17,319 bases of DNA, from IMG/VR virus record IMGVR_UViG_2547132281_000005; one strand, given 5' to 3'. The translations under genes and the position numbers were made by a program. Positions 1,969-12,791 of the stretch are shown here, in pieces; position 1 is the first letter of the stretch, and each line of letters starts with the position of its first letter. Source of the stretch: a virus. Taxonomy: Duplodnaviria; Heunggongvirae; Uroviricota; Caudoviricetes. The notes under the pieces are model-generated. The model did no database searches. It saw only the letters and a list, made by a program, of their open reading frames with translations, and was not told where the DNA came from.

Positions 1969-2185
1969 CAACCGCAGCACGTTCTTGCTTAAGACGAGCT
2001 GCGGCATAATCCCAATGATTACTCCCTGACAGGGTTCGTAGGCCACTCAATATCAGGTGCAGTTGATGTATCAACACGGTTCAGCAACACCCGATACTTT
2101 TTCCAGGCTTCCAGCAATGAGGTTTCTTCCTCCGTTGCAATTTCCAGATCTGCAGCATCCTGAAGCGGCGCAATATGCTCACTGG
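1969..2185. repeat. Direct repeat copy B (tfa 3' end plus downstream hairpin)
   Basis: Partner of 919-1135; contains hairpin 1972-2004 immediately after the convergent stops of the methyltransferase and tfa. Confidence 0.7.
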
Positions 2186-2603
2186 CTACCTGCATCAGGT
2201 TGTTTTTTGTTTCTTCCGCCTCCCGGATCCGGAACAGTTTTTCTGCTTCCGTATCCTTCACCCAGGCTGTGCCGTTCCACTTCTGAAACTCCCCTTCCGG
2301 CGATAACCAGGTAACATTTTCCGGTAACGGACCGAGTTCAGAAATAAATAACTCGTCCCCTGACGCTACGTCATAAACCGTTTTACCCCGATGGTCTTCA
2401 ACGAGATGCCACGATGCCTCATCACTGTTGAAAACAGCCACAAAGCCAGCAGGAATATCTGGTGGTGCAATATCGGTACTGTTTGCTGGCAGACCTGTAT
2501 GAGGCGGAATATATGCGTCACCTTCACCAATAAATTCATTAGTTCCGGCCAGCAGATTATAAATTTTTATGGTCCGTGCTTGTTCACTCATTCTGAATGC
2601 CAT
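2019..2603 (-). CDS. tfa: Tail fibre assembly protein Tfa (194 aa)
   Basis: Same length as lambda Tfa (194 aa) and conserved Tfa C-terminal block. Its ATG (2603-2601) overlaps the stop of the upstream fibre ORF in a TAATG arrangement, as in the lambda stf-tfa pair. Confidence 0.85.
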
Positions 2604-3550
2604 TATGCAAGCCTCACAATATAGTTAAATGCGATGTTTTTGACGGTGTTTTCCGCGTTACCCGCAGCGTTAACGGTGATGGTGTGTCCATGTGAACCAA
2701 TCGCAACGGAGTGCGTATGCGCACCAATACCTACAGTATGTGCATGTGCGCCAGAACTTGCTGCAGTACCAGACAGCGAGTGGGTATGAGCACCTGCTGA
2801 CTGTGTCTGAATACGTTGATAATACGATCTATAGGAAGAAGTCTCCGGGCTTACTTGATACTGTGAATTCTGGACATAAGTGAACCCACCGCCATCATAA
2901 AATGCTAACGCAGAACCGCCGCCTCCTGGCCAACGAATACCATTACCATGAGTATGAACACCGGCAGACCCCGTAGAGCCACTCAGACTGTGCGTATGCG
3001 CCCCGGTGTTATTCGTGGATTTAGTGCCGTAATCAAACGACGATGTGGTTTTCGTCCCCAAATCCGTACTGGATGCGCTGGCGCTGTGGGTGTGCGATTT
3101 AATGCCGTCCTGTTCCTGAGACAATACGGCCCGGCCACTGGCGGGTTTGCCCTTGATTGTCCAGCCGCGCATATCTGGAATAACACCTGAAGGATAGGCA
3201 ATAGCCAGTTTCGGATATGCTGCCTTATCAAACGTCTGCCCCTGCATGATTGCATAACCTGCAGGTGGTGTATCTGATGGCCACGGCAGCGGAACACCTG
3301 GCGGAAACGCTTCAATATTTGCCGAGCCGTCAAATTTTACGCCGTTAATTGTCCTTGCAGTTTGCAATTTGGTTGCTGTGCTTGCATTAGTCGAGGCTAA
3401 GGGCTTTTTTAACCTCGCATCCGCGCCTGCGGTAACACTGAATGAGCCATTCGGCCTGTTCTTCAGTGCATGGGGGGTGCTGGTACCAGTCTGACTTAAA
3501 TGCATGAGAATACCGCTCGTGCGTGTGGGCAAGAACGGTCGAATTATCAT
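2603..3550 (-). CDS. stf: Side tail fibre protein, C-terminal fragment (lambda orf-314-like), N-terminally truncated
   Basis: 315-aa ORF rich in G/S/T/A with repeated GAHTHS / HxH motifs and a [13 protein letters not shown] block typical of Stf C-terminal regions. The frame hits a stop at 3602-3604 just upstream and the ATG at 3550 has no RBS, so the N-terminal shaft portion is missing. Confidence 0.6.
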
Positions 3551-4011: not shown

Positions 4012-4043
4012 GAAAATAAAAACAAAAACCCGCCGAAGCGGGT
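4012..4043 (-). terminator. Rho-independent terminator of the hok transcript
   Basis: On the minus strand: stem ACCCGC / GCGGGT (4028-4043) with 4-nt loop, followed by TTTTTGTTTTTATTTT (complement of 4012-4027). Confidence 0.55.
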
Positions 4044-4112
4044 TAAGTGCGGGTGCGTTGAGGATGCCTGCCACATCAGAGGTGGCGAGGGATTTCTCCC
4101 TCGCCGGGTCTC

Positions 4113-4268
4113 TTACTCCTCAGGTTCGTAAGCTGTGAAGACAGCGACCTCCGTCTGGCCGGTTCGGATTCGTACCTCGCAGAGGTCTTTCCTCGTTACC
4201 AGTGCCGTCACTATGACGGTTAAACAGATGACGATCAGGGCGATTAGCATCGCCTTTTGCTGCTTCAT
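4113..4268 (-). CDS. hok: Hok/Gef family type I toxin (51 aa)
   Basis: MKQQKAMLIALIVICLTVIVTALVTRKDLCEVRIRTGQTEVAVFTAYEPEE closely matches the Hok/Gef family as I recall it. ATG at 4268 preceded by GGAGA; stop TAA at 4113-4115. Confidence 0.85.
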   Translation of the reverse strand: MKQQKAMLIALIVICLTVIVTALVTRKDLCEVRIRTGQTEVAVFTAYEPEE

Positions 4269-4325
4269 AGCCTGCTTCTCCTTGCCTTTCGGCACGTAAG
4301 AGGCTAACCTACGTGTGTAGAGCAT
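4113..4325 (-). CDS. mok: Mok (modulator of killing) reading frame, in-frame N-terminal extension of hok
   Basis: 70-aa ORF sharing the stop and frame with hok, as in chromosomal mokC/hokC. Confidence 0.55.
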   Translation of the reverse strand: MLYTRRLASYVPKGKEKQAMKQQKAMLIALIVICLTVIVTALVTRKDLCEVRIRTGQTEVAVFTAYEPEE

Positions 4326-4370
4326 AGGTATGGCCTCAGATTAATGTTAAGCGTCTTGCCGGACGCGTAA
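4295..4370 (+). ncRNA. sok: Putative Sok-like antisense RNA (position inferred, boundaries approximate)
   Basis: Inferred from hok/sok organisation: the antisense RNA should overlap the mok initiation region. A plus-strand hairpin GCGTC-ttgccg-GACGC lies at 4351-4366 but lacks a clean U-run, so the end is uncertain. Confidence 0.25.
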
Positions 4371-4443
4371 TGTTAACTGGGGCTTTTCTCTATCTGCCTT
4401 TGGTGTTGATGCCCGAGGCAGATAGCCTCAAGCACCCGCAGCA

Positions 4444-4472
4444 ATTCTACTTAACTACCGTTACCTCGCCAA
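4444..4472 (-). promoter_or_regulatory. Candidate sigma-70 promoter for the hok/mok mRNA
   Basis: Minus strand reads TTGGCG (complement of 4467-4472), 17-nt spacer, TAGAAT (complement of 4444-4449). A 9-bp stem 4390-4398 / 4417-4425 sits in the predicted 5' leader. Confidence 0.4.
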
Positions 4473-4479
4473 TATGAAA

Positions 4480-4569
4480 TCAATCAGAAAGGTGATCCAT
4501 AAGAACAACAGCAAGACAATAAATTGCCATTACAGCAGCAATAGCCAGCGCACATTTGAGAACCAGCAC
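4480..4569 (-). CDS. Candidate small hydrophobic peptide (29-30 aa, type I toxin-like)
   Basis: AGGAGG (complement of 4575-4580), 5-nt spacer, GTG at 4569; encodes VLVLKCALAIAAVMAIYCLAVVLMDHLSD, then TGA (4482-4480). The DNA here is TGY-repetitive and open in several frames, so this may be chance. Confidence 0.25.
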   Translation of the reverse strand: MLVLKCALAIAAVMAIYCLAVVLMDHLSD

Positions 4570-4947
4570 CACAACCTCCTGTATTGGACGTACACCAGTC
4601 CTGATAAATATGAGGCTGTCTCGTCAGTGATTCAATACAACTACTGGGTATAGTTTCTATGATTTTGTTCTGTGGAAATGGAAAACAGCAACCAGTCACC
4701 ACCAGCACTTCTTTAAACATGCCAAGTCACACGCAAGCCAACATTATAGTTCCCTTTGAGCGAGCAGATGAAGCTAGCAAAAATATTGATCACTTAGGAT
4801 GCATTACTAACGTTGCTATGTGTTAACGAACAGGGAGTGGGTCATCAGCATAAATATTTATGCAGTAGGTTTCTTTTAGGACTAGATTAATCAAAAACAT
4901 TTAGATAAAATTATAAAATCAAGAAATTGGTGGCAATTAATCTTTAA

Positions 4948-5326: not shown

Positions 5327-6521
<1,195 letters not shown>

Positions 6522-6911: not shown

Positions 6912-7571
6912 TTGATTTTGAATTACAAAATAAATGGAATAAACATACGTTCAGAAAATGCAGCGAAACCGCACACTATGCCATCTAACTATCTCTGTAA
7001 ACAGATTGAAAGCACTAATAAAAATGGCAATGCCCTTGATTTTGGATGTGGAAAACTTAGATATTCAGAACAATTAGTAAATAAATTTGAAACTGTGACA
7101 TTTTTAGATTCCAGAAGACAACTAGAAAGAGTGCAAATTATCAGAGGTGTACAAACCACGATTCCAGATTACGTGATAAATAACTATAAGAATGCTAATA
7201 TTGTTTCTTATGAAAATATAGATAAAATAACAAATCATTATGATTTCATACTTTGCGCAAACGTGCTTTCCGCAATTCCATGTGAATCCACAATTCACAA
7301 AGTCCTCAGTGCGATTAGAGAATTATTAAAGAGTGATGGTGAAGCACTGATTGTCAATCAATACAAAAGTTCTTATTTCAAGAGGTACGAGAGCGGTATT
7401 AAACATTTGCATGGGTATATATACCAAAACTCTCGTAATGCTTTCTACTATGGTTTATTAGATGTGGATACTGTAAGTAAAATATGCTCAGATAATAATT
7501 TAGAAATAATAAAATCATGGAGCAAAGCAGGTAGTTCATATGTGGTTGTTGGTAAACATATACATATTTAG
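6912..7571 (+). CDS. TehB-like class I SAM-dependent methyltransferase (about 217-219 aa)
   Basis: Motif I ALDFGCGKL, acidic LDSR, YDFILCANVLSAIP and LKSDGEALIV blocks resemble TehB-type methyltransferases. Likely start is TTG 6918 (GAGG 6908-6911, 6-nt spacer) or TTG 6912; begins 7 nt after the membrane-protein stop. Confidence 0.7.
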   Translation: MILNYKINGINIRSENAAKPHTMPSNYLCKQIESTNKNGNALDFGCGKLRYSEQLVNKFETVTFLDSRRQLERVQIIRGVQTTIPDYVINNYKNANIVSYENIDKITNHYDFILCANVLSAIPCESTIHKVLSAIRELLKSDGEALIVNQYKSSYFKRYESGIKHLHGYIYQNSRNAFYYGLLDVDTVSKICSDNNLEIIKSWSKAGSSYVVVGKHIHI

Positions 7572-7885
7572 TTTATTTCAACAAATTATTAGAAAGAGTG
7601 ATTTGCTTGTTAATTATTAGCTCGGCAGTGCCGGATCAACATGACCCTGCCACTTAGGCCATTGCCGGTTTACCTACTTTTGTAAGGTTCAGCATGAAGT
7701 TTTTATATACTCTTCCTAATATCAATAGTGATGCTCGCTTATGTTAGCTGCTTCTTGTACATAGTAGCCTTCTCCGACAGTACTGCAATGAGCGGAGAGT
7801 AAAAGTCGATAAACAATAAGGAGGTTCACAATAAATATTTCTCGGTGAAACTTTCAAAGCATTCTCTGTTTTGCTAAATCGACAA

Positions 7886-8785
7886 TTATAAATCAACAAC
7901 ATTTAGTGTTATATCAATATTATTTAGCCTTGCAATCTCTGATGAATCACTTGCTATTTTAGCTTTTAATTTATCAATATTAATCATATCTTCATGGCTT
8001 ATATAAACCATATCACCTTGGTTAACTTTAGATTTGTTCACTATGGCTTGAATAACAGACAAATCATCCATTACACCTCTCATAAATTTCACCATGCTTT
8101 GATCTTTGAAGTCAGATATCGATTTTGAGCGTTGCTTACGTTGAATTGTTCCTTTTGTAATTACTTCATTAATTTCTTTTAAACCAGTGAGCATATCAGA
8201 CAGACTGCCTTCGCAACTCATCCGATGTTTTATTGCATTGCGATTAATAATATTGAGTATAATTTCGAGTGAATCTTTATCACTCCATGGATGTAATGAT
8301 GTATAATCATGATGGCGTCGAATGGCGTCAATCATATCCTGGACCATATCTTCATCTGCTTTATCGCAAAGTTCATTCACGAAATAGCTGGGGTCGATTA
8401 TTTTACAATAACTTGGAGTTAGGTATCTTGAGGCTTTACAAAAACCAAAAATATATAAAGTAGAGTATTTATCTTTCAGACTCTCTCCTATTTCATTTGT
8501 TTCCTCAAAAGATTCGATAGTTTTTTTAATTTTTGCTGGACTTGCATTCGTAGTAACTTGAACTGCTATCATGTTTTTATTATCAGCTAAATCAATGGCG
8601 GGAAAATTAACTTTAATCTGATTCATGTTTACCAGTTCACCCATTTTCAGCGCGCGAAACATAAAGATGGTCAATGACTCAATTATTCTTTCCATGTCAT
8701 GAAAGCCTGCCTGTTTGCGTTGCGCGATATAAAGCTGGAGTAGTGCAATATCACTCTGTAAGTTTCTAATAAGTGGATCAATCAT
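7886..8785 (-). CDS. Hypothetical 299-aa protein, AT-rich orphan (candidate defence/abortive-infection gene)
   Basis: ATG at 8785 with AGGA upstream; long uninterrupted ORF, convergent with the methyltransferase. No recognisable catalytic motif (no HExxH, no Walker A, no TM segments). Confidence 0.7.
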   Translation of the reverse strand: MIDPLIRNLQSDIALLQLYIAQRKQAGFHDMERIIESLTIFMFRALKMGELVNMNQIKVNFPAIDLADNKNMIAVQVTTNASPAKIKKTIESFEETNEIGESLKDKYSTLYIFGFCKASRYLTPSYCKIIDPSYFVNELCDKADEDMVQDMIDAIRRHHDYTSLHPWSDKDSLEIILNIINRNAIKHRMSCEGSLSDMLTGLKEINEVITKGTIQRKQRSKSISDFKDQSMVKFMRGVMDDLSVIQAIVNKSKVNQGDMVYISHEDMINIDKLKAKIASDSSEIARLNNIDITLNVVDL

Positions 8786-11856: not shown

Positions 11857-12012
11857 ATGGATACTATCGATCTTGGCAACAACGAATCTCTGGTGTACGG
11901 CGTGTTTCCAAACCAGGACGGCACGTTCACCGCAATGACGTATACCAAAAGCAAAACGTTTAAAACCGAAAATGGTGCCCGTCGCTGGCTGGAAAGAAAC
12001 TCAGGTGAGTGA
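11857..12012 (+). CDS. Hypothetical 51-aa protein (YdaF-like position and size)
   Basis: ATG 11857 with GAGG 5 nt upstream; MDTIDLGNNESLVYGVFPNQDGTFTAMTYTKSKTFKTENGARRWLERNSGE; stop TGA 12010-12012. Confidence 0.55.
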   Translation: MDTIDLGNNESLVYGVFPNQDGTFTAMTYTKSKTFKTENGARRWLERNSGE

Positions 12013-12013
12013 T

Positions 12014-12142
12014 ATGGATTTCGACACAATCATGGAAAAGGCTTACGAAGAATACTTCGAAGGCCTTGCCGAAGGCGAAGAAGCTCTCAGCTTCAGTGAG
12101 TTTAAACAGGCGCTTTCCAGCTCGGCAAAATCTAACGGCTGA
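12014..12142 (+). CDS. Hypothetical 42-aa acidic protein (YdaG-like position and size)
   Basis: ATG 12014 two nt after the upstream stop, with AGGTGA 5 nt upstream; MDFDTIMEKAYEEYFEGLAEGEEALSFSEFKQALSSSAKSNG. Not in the ORF track because it is under 60 aa. Confidence 0.4.
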   Translation: MDFDTIMEKAYEEYFEGLAEGEEALSFSEFKQALSSSAKSNG

Positions 12143-12171
12143 TAAGCGAAGCAGCACCGCGAGGAATCAGT

Positions 12172-12390
12172 ATGCAGAAACGAGAACCCGTCATCATCGC
12201 GCCAGACTATACCGATGATGAACTTTATGAGTGGATGCACCAGAAAATTAATGCAGCGCAGGATCTGAAATGGGCCAATGAAGCCAGGGCTAAGCAGGCT
12301 GAAAATCTGTCCGCTCTGGAGCAGGATATCACTAATCTGGAAAAAGCAGCGGCATTAAGCATTGCCAGAATGATTACATACCCGCGTTAA
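12172..12390 (+). CDS. Hypothetical 72-aa protein
   Basis: ATG 12172 with GAGGAA 5 nt upstream; stop TAA 12388-12390. Confidence 0.6.
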   Translation: MQKREPVIIAPDYTDDELYEWMHQKINAAQDLKWANEARAKQAENLSALEQDITNLEKAAALSIARMITYPR

Positions 12391-12393
12391 TAG

Positions 12394-12791
12394 CTAACCA
12401 ACGAAGCTAAGGTTGGTAATTAAGGAGTTCTCCACGGATGAGGTGGAGTGCGTGCGCCGGACACGGGTGAGCATCCGGCACAGACAGTTTACTGAAAGGA
12501 TATTTCCCTGAAAGGTCAGACCATAACGCGAAAGCGCACGGCGAGGTAGCTGGTTCATAGATAGCCTGTCGTTAAATTTTCGTCGACCGTGCGCTTCCGG
12601 TTGTGGCAATCCGCGAAATGGCGCGGCGGTGAGTATGGCGGGGTTATTCCTTCCCCGTTGAGGACACCGGGTTGTCAGGTTGACCATACGCTTAAGTGAC
12701 AACCCCGCTGCAACGCCCTCTGTTATCAATTTTCTGGTGACGTTTGGCGGTATCAGTTTTACTCCGTGACTGCTCTGCCGCCCTTTTTAAA
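12394..12791 (+). ncRNA. GC-rich structured non-coding region (candidate ncRNA or structured leader), strand assumed from the flanking operon
   Basis: No plausible ORF on either strand. Consecutive perfect stems: ACCAAC/GTTGGT (12397-12417), CTCCAC/GTGGAG (12430-12448), GCCGGA/TCCGGC (12456-12479), CGC-GAAA-GCG (12527-12536), GCGCACGG/CCGTGCGC (12534-12594), CCGCG/CGCGG (12611-12626), CGGGG/CCCCG (12639-12657), GGGTTGTCA/TGACAACCC (12669-12705), and GGCGG...CCGCC followed by CTTTTT (12746-12788). Confidence 0.3.

Follow-up and report, generated by a model that had tools for sequence, protein, structure and literature searches.

The type system of the hok/sok family is the parB module of plasmid R1, which is plasmid-borne and for which post-segregational killing has been proven. 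Its mRNA switch, including a transient structure formed by the nascent transcript, has been described (PMC9841398), and the truncated mRNA, Tr-hok, is destabilised by mutations in its 3' stem (PMC9841398). Modules of this kind are already known and ordinary, and a phage homologue, hokW/mokW/sokW of the Stx phage 933W/Sp5 (AF125520), has been characterised experimentally as a working type I toxin-antitoxin pair (PMC8621323). In Escherichia coli K-12, the family includes the chromosomal loci hokC/mokC/sokC (gef) and hokB/mokB/sokB, neither of which is prophage-borne, as well as hokD (relF), located in the Qin prophage.

Here we describe a locus of this family in a 17,319-nucleotide stretch of DNA from a tailed phage (hereafter the window), and compare it with these systems. 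We conclude, with a probability of about 0.9, that it is an intact hok/mok/sok type I toxin-antitoxin module, representing the complete, ancestral form of E. coli hokD and closely related to hokW/sokW of 933W/Sp5. An earlier note on this DNA had proposed a full module of the hok/mok/sok type in a cryptic prophage, and this proposal is borne out by Rfam, Pfam and PHROG matches, by identity to 933W and by family-wide covariation; each sequence feature that the note listed was found at or near the position given for it. The positions of the individual regulatory elements are now given exactly, with the fold-back inhibitory element (fbi) reassigned and Sok delimited (Table 1).

Table 1. Elements of the hok/mok/sok locus in the window, in the order of hok transcription; the two Sok entries, on the opposite strand, stand last
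Element	Coordinates	Strand	Description and basis
hok/mok promoter	4472..4444	-	-35 TTGGCG (4472..4467), 17-nt spacer, -10 TAGAAT (4449..4444); 9/12 matches in promoter scan
tac (translational activator element)	4437..4426	-	GGGUGCUUGAGG; 5' end of hok mRNA; folds, covariation
Metastable 5' hairpin (predicted)	4436..4408	-	nascent transcript; tac paired with the sequence immediately downstream
Conserved 5' stem-loop	4425..4390	-	arms 4425-4417 and 4398-4390; MFE folds, Rfam model helix
ucb (anti-SD box)	4385..4377	-	AAGCCCCAG region; pairs with mok SD (full-length form) or tac (open form)
mok Shine-Dalgarno (SD)	4337..4334	-	GAGG, 8 nt upstream of mok AUG; read from sequence
mok reading frame	4325..4113	-	70 aa; in frame with hok, as its N-terminal extension; ORF list
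hok toxin gene	4268..4113	-	51 aa plus stop; MKQQKAMLIALIVICLTVIVTALVTRKDLCEVRIRTGQTEVAVFTAYEPEE; Pfam HOK_GEF, K-12 comparison
3' stem-loop	4105..4084	-	GGCGAGGG/CCCUCGCC; 9 bp; follows hok stop codon
fbi (fold-back inhibitory element)	4063..4051	-	CCUCAACGCACCC; 49 nt after hok stop codon; pairs with tac in MFE fold
Intrinsic terminator	4044..4017	-	AACCCGC-UUCG-GCGGGUU (4044..4027), then U run; terminator scan
Sok promoter	4282..4310	+	-35 TTGCCT (4282..4287), 17-nt spacer, -10 TAACCT (4305..4310); identical to sokW in alignment
Sok antisense RNA (predicted)	4317..4387	+	71 nt; ends transferred from annotated sokW misc_RNA of AF125520

The family assignment rests in part on the leader of the hok mRNA. 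The Rfam search recommended in the earlier note matched RF01794 at 4437..4263 on the minus, hok-sense strand, with 115.3 bits (gathering score, 59; E = 4.5e-26) and over the full model, positions 1-157; R1, hokB, hokC and hokW give RF01794 matches likewise, the leader being conserved in both sequence and structure. Since this Rfam family, named 'sok', actually models the hok-sense leader, the strand of the hit is not to be taken as the antitoxin strand. The predicted fold of the whole mRNA is far more stable than that of shuffled sequences (z = -8.9), and the mok product matches PHROG 251, 'MokW-like host killing', with 113 bits. At the DNA level, identity to loci annotated as hokD in RefSeq is 99.8%, and the same locus, one base apart, bears that annotation across hundreds of complete E. 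coli genomes, with at least 99% identity over 571 bp in 770 records. At least 2,944 of 5,426 complete E. coli genomes carry the complete form, as do many lambdoid phages.

The hok gene lies in frame within mok, as the earlier note had it, and the 51-aa product scores 81.6 bits with Pfam PF01848 (HOK_GEF), the cut-off of which is 22. All 12 columns that are invariant among six aligned Hok proteins are kept, including C15, T25, R26, E31, R35 and G37. Inactivating substitutions relative to functional homologues were looked for and none was found; the coding sequence differs from K-12 hokD by a single synonymous base (CTA vs TTA, both Leu), so that the two proteins are the same, and a HokD peptide of identical sequence is toxic on over-expression (bioRxiv 10.1101/2025.08.07.668861). 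No apparently disabling change was recognised in the locus as a whole. In an NCBIfam scan the Hok family models stayed below their cut-off (48.5 bits, where 73 are required), and none of the hits was a HokD model. The mok frame has its own SD and ATG and overlaps hok in the same layout as annotated mokW and mokC; its SD corresponds to the R1 mok SD, G105-G108 (PMC9841398). Upstream of the module, a 78-aa Cys-rich ORF (4484..4720) gave no family match in Pfam, PHROG or NCBIfam.

At the 5' end, the promoter proposed earlier, TTGGCG-17-TAGAAT, was recovered by the promoter scan, in which three promoter-like sites were found in the region compared with 0.7 expected from shuffles. 933W, phage Rac and HannyBb all have the same -10 hexamer, and the Rfam leader model begins 7 nt downstream of it. 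The first 35 nt of the mRNA are predicted to form a 12-bp hairpin (-21.4 kcal/mol, z = -5.8) accounting for 95% of the ensemble, which matches the transient structure of the nascent transcript known from R1 (PMC9841398). The 5' stem that had been read as 9 bp long is real, gains a tenth base pair in the MFE fold and coincides with a helix of the RF01794 model; across 51 aligned hok loci, 92% of its cells are paired and compensatory changes occur in 5 of its 10 pairs. In the leader-only fold the partner of tac is ucb (4385..4379), as in the Rfam consensus, and this helix is paired in 99.1% over the 51 loci and shows a compensatory change from UA to CG. In the full-length fold, ucb (4383..4377) pairs instead with the mok SD region (4333..4339). 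An alternative placement of ucb at AGCCUCUUAC (about 4305..4296) was rejected, given that the anti-SD described for R1 (A70-C74; PMC9841398) and the folds both place it at the position in Table 1. In the Rfam consensus structure, the nearby GCCUC (4304..4300) is the partner of the mok SD, GAGGC; it fits the 'dcb' of PMC9841398.

At the 3' end, the MFE fold joins the two extremities of the mRNA, tac (4437..4426) pairing with fbi (4063..4051) in a duplex of -21.5 kcal/mol, a value that 10 of 2000 shuffled 3' UTRs also reached. Alignment columns 4 and 448, which belong to this duplex, carry UA in 28 and CG in 23 of the 51 loci and are unpaired in none; binding of non-cognate tac variants is 4.7 kcal/mol worse on average, and cognate pairs outperform non-cognate ones in 91% of comparisons. 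The earlier note had suggested that an 8-bp stem at 4084-4105 could be the fold-back element. The stem itself is real and has 9 bp, -19.7 kcal/mol, z = -5.6 and compensatory changes in 7 of 9 pairs across the 51 loci; the role was rejected, because the stem is self-paired and the 5' end of the mRNA pairs with the downstream element. By its position we infer that this 3' stem-loop corresponds to the one that both ends and protects the processed (truncated) hok mRNA of R1. The terminator that had also been noted was found by the scan, its stem-loop being followed by a T run in the DNA, and it is identical in K-12 hokD and in E. coli 55989. Over the whole alignment of 51 loci, the covariation score was 0.190, compared with at most 0.096 for slid controls.

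These folds are consistent with a tac/ucb switch that frees the mok SD: GAGG is buried in the full-length fold and is left unpaired once the leader folds without fbi, the 3' stem-loop being present as well. For a truncated RNA of 4437..4080, one assumed end, the MFE structure opened the SD only partly. This computation is low in power, because MFE folding of the truncated R1 control also misses the published open form.

The antisense RNA was placed by homology. The earlier note had inferred Sok without delimiting it cleanly, pointing to a plus-strand RNA at about 4295-4370; at the level of sequence a cis-encoded candidate Sok, with promoter and terminator, does lie over the mok initiation region, and its ends, which can be set from sokW, are shifted rightward by about 20 nt from the interval guessed before. 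The predicted RNA begins with a single-stranded tail of 15 nt that is complementary to the mok start region; a long hairpin (4332..4384) and a U run follow. The fold of this RNA (-28.6 kcal/mol, z = -4.5) has the shape of sokW, and the RNA is colinear with annotated sokW, sokC and sokB. The Sok promoter was not listed by a generic promoter scan of the region, its -10 hexamer agreeing with the consensus at 3 of 6 positions, so that homology was required to place Sok. This -10 is the one mutated in sokW, where the 'pro-less' primer YO-421 replaces exactly TAACCTA and antitoxin activity is abolished (Takada et al. 2021, PMC8621323). RefSeq annotates the hok CDS alone at this locus, Sok being left out by genome annotation pipelines.

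Among the described systems, hokW/mokW/sokW of the Stx2 phage 933W and of Sp5, a Sakai prophage, shares 93.3% DNA identity over 88% of the locus and is likewise carried by a lambdoid phage. It has the same in-frame nesting, with both CDS sharing one stop, and its tac, ucb, fbi, hok promoter -10, Sok promoter hexamers and Sok hairpin are identical to those of the window. The two Hok proteins are 92% identical and diverge at the C terminus (TAYEPEE in the window, VDYESEK in 933W). Unlike the window, 933W has no terminator after fbi, and its locus lies near L0136-L0141, whereas that of the window lies beside rem.

The R1 system is more distant, its Hok being 41% identical to that of the window; nevertheless, the order and spacing of the elements are shared (tac to fbi, 387 nt in the window and 396 nt in R1), the Sok promoter is likewise placed, RF01794 matches both, and the full-length fold follows the same logic of tac/fbi and SD/anti-SD pairing. 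The tac and fbi elements, GGCGC with GCGCC in R1 and GGGUGC with GCACCC in the window, constitute a compensatory pair. Read from the sequences, mok and hok share one frame in the window but not in R1, and the hokD-type leader carries a 16-nt insertion relative to R1, which lengthens the Sok terminator hairpin. Both hokC and hokB of K-12 give RF01794 matches, and their annotated sok RNAs align with the Sok of the window. HokC is 82% identical to the window Hok, and mokC is in frame with hokC, as in the window, whereas the mokB frame as annotated finishes 40 nt short of the hokB stop codon and is thus not in frame. In K-12, IS186 lies 20 bp after the hokC stop codon, removing fbi, while hokB has a tac/fbi variant, GGGUGCC with GGCACCC.

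Identity between the K-12 hokD locus and that of the window begins 14 nt before the hok AUG and continues past the terminator, two substitutions excepted; the protein, fbi, 3' stem-loop and terminator are the same, and rem is the downstream neighbour in both. Further upstream, K-12 carries relB-relE where the window has its promoter, tac, ucb, mok start and Sok gene, and a scan of K-12 hokD with RF01794 gave no match. Because relBE replaces the leader and the RF01794 match is absent, K-12 hokD is a rearranged, truncated derivative, and the locus in the window is the complete form.

The mechanism demonstrated in R1 and hokW would apply to the window by virtue of the conserved elements. The hok promoter would give rise to a stable mRNA of about 415 nt, the 5' end of which would be kept in the local hairpin during transcription. 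In the finished RNA, tac would pair with fbi and ucb would bury the mok SD, allowing neither translation nor Sok binding. Slow 3' trimming back to the 3' stem-loop would remove fbi, upon which tac would pair with ucb, the mok SD would open and the mok start region would be exposed. As long as Sok, an unstable RNA, is synthesised, its 5' tail would pair with that region and block translation of mok and, by coupling, of hok, the duplex being cut by RNase III. Should Sok synthesis stop, owing to DNA loss, transcription shut-off or prophage induction, Hok would be made and inserted into the inner membrane, and the cell would be killed or arrested.

The module occupies its standard place in a lambdoid (PPompW-type) prophage, flanked by the replication/nin region on one side and by rem-Q on the other. 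This prophage is defective, with a 37.9-kb (about 38 kb) late-gene deletion, the joint of which (3388/3389) is spanned by none of the complete E. coli genomes, and with an IS5 insertion nearby. Most plausibly, the module is a selfish stabiliser, or addiction element, of the prophage remnant, or else a neutral passenger.

Two other views of its role deserve consideration. The locus might be structurally intact and physiologically a silent relic, transcribed and repressed by Sok as in other chromosomal hok/sok copies, never triggering killing and hitch-hiking in the prophage remnant; we consider this a serious possibility, at rather less than even odds. Native chromosomal hokA, hokB and hokC show neither post-segregational killing nor activation by rifampicin (bioRxiv 10.1101/2025.08.07.668861), the surrounding prophage is decaying, as its deletion and IS5 insertion indicate, and the window has a private SNP shortly before the mok AUG. 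Against silence stand the intact state of all regulatory elements, the structural constraint visible across the family, the retention of a near-identical locus in those 2,944 or more E. coli genomes, and the activity of the close homologue hokW/sokW from a single copy in a lysogen (PMC8621323).

The selected role might otherwise be related to phages and not to maintenance, either in abortive infection or exclusion, where shut-off of host transcription by an infecting lytic phage would lead to decay of Sok and killing by Hok, or as a helper of induced lysis in the intact ancestor, as in hokW/sokW; on balance, we hold this to be somewhat unlikely. It draws on the observations that the Sp5 burst after mitomycin C is twice as large with hokW/sokW and that Sok vanishes on induction (PMC8621323), on the reduction of T4 plating by R1 hok/sok, as cited in PMC8621323, on the roughly fourfold enrichment of hok genes in prophages (bioRxiv 10.1101/2025.08.07.668861) and on homologues of the locus in 110 phage records. 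Assistance in lysis is moot here, however, because the prophage has lost Q and the lysis and morphogenesis genes, and hok is not enriched beside defence systems (bioRxiv 10.1101/2025.08.07.668861). Nor did Mok or Hok match any model of the PADLOC defence-system catalogue at E <= 0.001, a result that does not argue decisively against abortive infection, because hok is absent from that catalogue.

That the locus resembles such a module by chance only, or as a degenerate pseudo-hok without an antisense gene, such as K-12 hokD, a truncated copy with relBE upstream of its hok SD, is scarcely credible, being refuted by the complete leader (RF01794, 115 bits), the mok frame with SD and ATG, a Sok promoter and body laid out as in annotated sokW, the cognate, covarying tac/fbi pair and the K-12 comparison itself.

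Taking the locus as an intact module, the part that varies most is the one that would determine recognition between the two RNAs. The Sok recognition tail and its target at the mok AUG (4330..4316) constitute the fastest-evolving transcribed block among hokD-type copies, and the block reads GUAGAGCAUAGGUAUGG in the window and GUUCAGCAUGGAUUGAG in 933W; several positions differ, which makes cross-repression doubtful. The private SNP of the window, at 4328, falls in the Sok tail and precedes the mok AUG by 3 nt; exact-match searches found its allele neither in the 5,426 complete E. coli genomes nor in IMG/VR. By replacing a U.G with a C-G pair, it strengthens the predicted hairpin that holds the mok AUG. 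Co-resident prophage hok/sok copies might be under diversifying selection for mutual orthogonality, so that each Sok silences its own hok only, an idea that we regard as quite improbable. If it were true, the window allele would be a fresh specificity variant, the C-G pair of which would also tighten the mok start-codon hairpin.

The reading of this locus as a hok/sok-type module, put forward in the earlier note, is supported, with corrections to the positions of the fold-back inhibitory element (fbi) and of Sok. The in-frame nesting of hok within mok, the promoter, the stems, and the terminator are all present, and the Rfam match described below, together with a candidate transcript (4437..4022) folding 8.9 standard deviations better than shuffled sequences, shows that these features are real and did not arise by chance. 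The longer protein matched Pfam HOK_GEF (81.6 bits; cut-off 22) and PHROG 251 'MokW-like host killing' (113 bits). The start codons, SDs, both promoters, tac (the 5' end of the hok mRNA), ucb (the anti-SD box), fbi, and terminator are all intact. No inactivating substitutions, which the earlier note had considered, were found in hok, and its product is the same protein as K-12 HokD, which is toxic when over-expressed (bioRxiv 10.1101/2025.08.07.668861). We put the probability that the module is intact at about 0.9.

Features of the hok/mok/sok locus and of the neighboring insertion sequence (window coordinates)
Feature	Position	Strand	Description or basis
hok/mok promoter-like site	4472..4444	minus	TTGGCG-17-TAGAAT; upstream of the ORFs (scan)
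mok ORF	4325..4113	minus	70 codons; encloses hok in frame
hok ORF	4268..4113, including stop	minus	51 codons; in frame inside the 70-codon ORF
Intrinsic-terminator-like hairpin and T run	4044..4027	minus	downstream of the ORFs (scan)
Sok promoter	TTGCCT 4282..4287; TAACCT 4305..4310	plus	17-nt spacer; sequence and alignment
Sok (predicted)	4317..4387	plus	71 nt; ends transferred from annotated sokW
IS5, complete	5327..6521		1195 bp; 16-bp terminal inverted repeats; 4-bp target duplication TTAG
IS5 DDE transposase	5473..6489		338 aa

The Rfam search suggested in the earlier note returned RF01794, named 'sok antitoxin (CssrC)', matched over the whole model at 4437..4263 with 115.3 bits (gathering score 59, E = 4.5e-26). 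The match lies on the hok-sense strand in the window, as it does in four reference loci, namely R1-type hok/sok, K-12 hokC and hokB, and 933W hokW; sokC and sokB are annotated opposite to the hok-sense strand in K-12. RF01794 is therefore a model of the leader, the part of the hok mRNA between its 5' end and the hok AUG, rather than of the antisense RNA, and so its matches lie on the strand opposite to annotated sokB, sokC, and sokW. Its consensus represents the open conformation, with a tac/ucb stem and an SD/dcb stem. In the R1 plasmid system, the match starts at position 427, one base ahead of position 428, which, taken as +1, fits the mutant numbering of PMC9841398 (A70, C74, G105, A106) to the sequence. 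By analogy, the window transcript would start at 4437, 7 nt past the -10 hexamer.

In the full-length minimum free energy fold, tac GGGUGCUUGAGG (4437..4426) pairs with CCUCAACGCACCC (4063..4051) with one bulged C, and the R1 control gave the same tac/fbi fold. Among 77 hok loci gathered from one genome per species, the tac motif and a sufficient 3' UTR could be located in 65, in which the best partner of the 5' end lies 24-138 nt, mostly 41-58 nt, past the stop codon. The fbi varies in step with tac (GGGUGC/GCACCC, GGCGC/GCGCC, GGGUGCC/GGCACCC, GGGCGCC/GGCGCCC); with non-cognate tac variants, binding is weaker by 4.7 kcal/mol on average, and it is weaker in 91% of comparisons. In a 51-sequence alignment, the variable tac/fbi pair is UA in 28 loci, CG in 23, and unpaired in none. 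The whole-structure covariation score was 0.190 compared with 0.071-0.096 for slid partners, although the tested structure came from the window sequence itself, which favors it over slid versions; 0 of 500 shuffles reached 0.190. The pairing, the in-step changes, and the covariation thus identify 4063..4051 as the fbi. The stem at 4084-4105, which the earlier note had proposed as a possible fold-back element, does exist, but as a self-contained 9-bp hairpin (-19.7 kcal/mol), and was rejected as fbi. It shows compensatory changes at seven of nine pairs across the family and lies directly past the hok stop, the place occupied in R1 by a stem-loop at the end of the truncated mRNA that protects this RNA against 3' exonucleases (PMC9841398).

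The folds also describe a switch. In the full-length RNA, the mok SD (GAGG, 4337..4334) pairs with 4383..4377; in a fold of the leader lacking the 3' part, 4385..4379 becomes the partner of tac and the mok SD is left unpaired. Across 51 loci, this tac/ucb helix is 99.1% paired and shows a compensatory change from UA to CG. A 12-bp hairpin (-21.4 kcal/mol, 95% of the ensemble) is predicted for the first 35 nt of the transcript and fits the R1 transient structure preventing co-transcriptional translation. According to the R1 model (PMC9841398), an inert full-length hok mRNA would be made first, the fbi would be removed by slow 3' trimming, and the trimmed RNA would refold into the open form, accessible to the ribosome and Sok. 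Sok would then repress translation, with the Sok/mRNA duplex cleaved by RNase III, and Hok would be produced only once Sok was no longer replenished. The conserved parts of the locus fit this model, every step of which would apply to the window allele by analogy.

The Sok promoter hexamers line up with the sok regions of 933W, phage Rac, hokC, hokB, and R1, and are identical to those of 933W sokW. The -10 hexamer is a poor consensus match and was missed by a generic promoter scan. In the sokW 'pro-less' mutant of Takada et al., primer YO-421 replaces exactly TAACCTA, and antitoxin activity is lost (PMC8621323). The sokW ends shift Sok from the region around 4295-4370 proposed in the earlier note. 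The predicted RNA starts with a tail of 15 unpaired nt complementary to 4331..4317, the mok AUG included, and continues with a long hairpin (4332..4384) and UUUU; its fold (-28.6 kcal/mol, z = -4.5) equals sokW in shape.

The only peculiarity of the module is position 4328, C on the minus strand versus T in E. coli 55989. The surrounding 61-mer had no exact match in 5,426 complete E. coli genomes (best 98.4% identical), nor did a 30-mer have one in IMG/VR. The site lies 3 nt 5' of the mok AUG and is nucleotide 12 of predicted Sok; the change converts U.G to C-G in a small hairpin holding the mok AUG in the folds and leaves Sok-target complementarity unaffected. Among 11 hokD-type copies, no other 15-mer of the transcript varies as much as the Sok-tail/mok-AUG block (4316..4330; 0.25 vs at most 0.13 elsewhere). 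Taken with the private SNP, this would be consistent with selection that keeps co-resident copies orthogonal; the block is the only lead here that is mildly new. The hok Tyr47 codon UAC is followed by G (GCU UAC GAA; 4127..4130, minus strand), and the site is conserved; UACG is the TadA recognition motif. For K-12 hokD, A-to-I editing that changes the corresponding Tyr to Cys is reported at about 6% (PMC12214031).

Both the type of element and the place where it lies were known before. The 571 bases around it are 99.8% identical to DNA annotated as hokD by RefSeq; some match occurs in 4,725 of 5,426 complete E. coli genomes, and a copy covering at least 80% of the query in 2,944. K-12 hokD is identical from 14 nt 5' of the hok AUG to past the terminator apart from two substitutions, one of them in the CDS and synonymous, hence the shared protein. 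Upstream of this stretch, K-12 carries relE and relB, and its locus has no RF01794 match; K-12 hokD is therefore a rearranged remnant and the window copy a complete module. In a phage collection, 110 records match the locus. 933W (93.3% identity) annotates mokW, hokW, and sokW antisense RNA, and in phage Rac and HannyBb the locus lies directly 5' of rem and the Q region, as in the window. Near-identical enterobacterial hok loci (L018, L027, L033, L038-L040, L054, L072) also occur on contigs labeled Veillonella, Acinetobacter, Xanthomonas, Ferruginibacter, Streptomyces, Oscillibacter, Dysgonomonas, and Vagococcus, most likely through contamination or mis-binning rather than in real hosts, because most of these contigs are short or MAGs.

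From 3388 to the integrase gene at its end, the window is colinear with the PPompW-type prophage of 55989 (96-99.9% identity), except 12001-12450, which did not align and lies just upstream of a DicF sRNA gene (12732..12783, plus strand, 76.7 bits) in the early-left region, as in K-12 Qin. IS5, about 850 bp 5' of the hok promoter, is absent from the 55989 prophage and splits a hypothetical gene that 55989 keeps intact. The adjacency to the tail fibre remarked on earlier is present but not original: at a deletion joint (3388/3389), hok and rem, its normal neighbor, abut the C-terminal part of the tail-fibre gene and its assembly gene. The two sides (2400..3389 and 3388 onward) are each 99.9-100% identical to E. 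coli prophages; intact ones, such as that of strain 14EC017, have them separated by 37.9 kb in the same orientation, and none of the complete E. coli genomes runs across the joint. The 315-aa 'tail fibre' ORF (2603..3550) is thus a fusion across it. The gap region carries Q, lysis, and terminase genes in the part of it retrieved from 55989, and presumably head and tail genes farther on; the prophage is therefore defective and the tail-fibre adjacency secondary.

Elsewhere in the window, an Rfam IS009 match (225 bits, 2062..2260, minus strand) lies wholly within the tail-fibre-assembly ORF (2019..2603; Pfam Caudo_TAP), and this 'sRNA' family probably reflects coding sequence conserved among prophage tfa genes. 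At 7886..8785 (minus strand), a protein with a SMEK domain matches PADLOC candidate-defence model PDLC02399 (72 bits) and adjoins a SAM-dependent methyltransferase (6912..7571, plus strand), itself a weak PADLOC mad2 match; located between hok and the replication genes, the two (6912..8785) may form a defence or restriction-like pair carried by the prophage. A 78-aa cysteine-rich ORF (16 Cys; 4484..4720, minus strand), immediately upstream of the hok promoter, had no match in Pfam, PHROG, or NCBIfam, is unannotated in 55989, and is probably not a gene.

As for its role, hokW/sokW assists lysis, and phage yield after induction is twice as high with it (PMC8621323); the window prophage retains no lysis genes. 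For R1 hok/sok, PMC8621323 cites a weak exclusion of T4, and tested native chromosomal hok loci showed no post-segregational killing (bioRxiv 10.1101/2025.08.07.668861). Given an intact module, we regard addiction or stabilisation of the prophage remnant, or a neutral passenger, as its likeliest present-day state.
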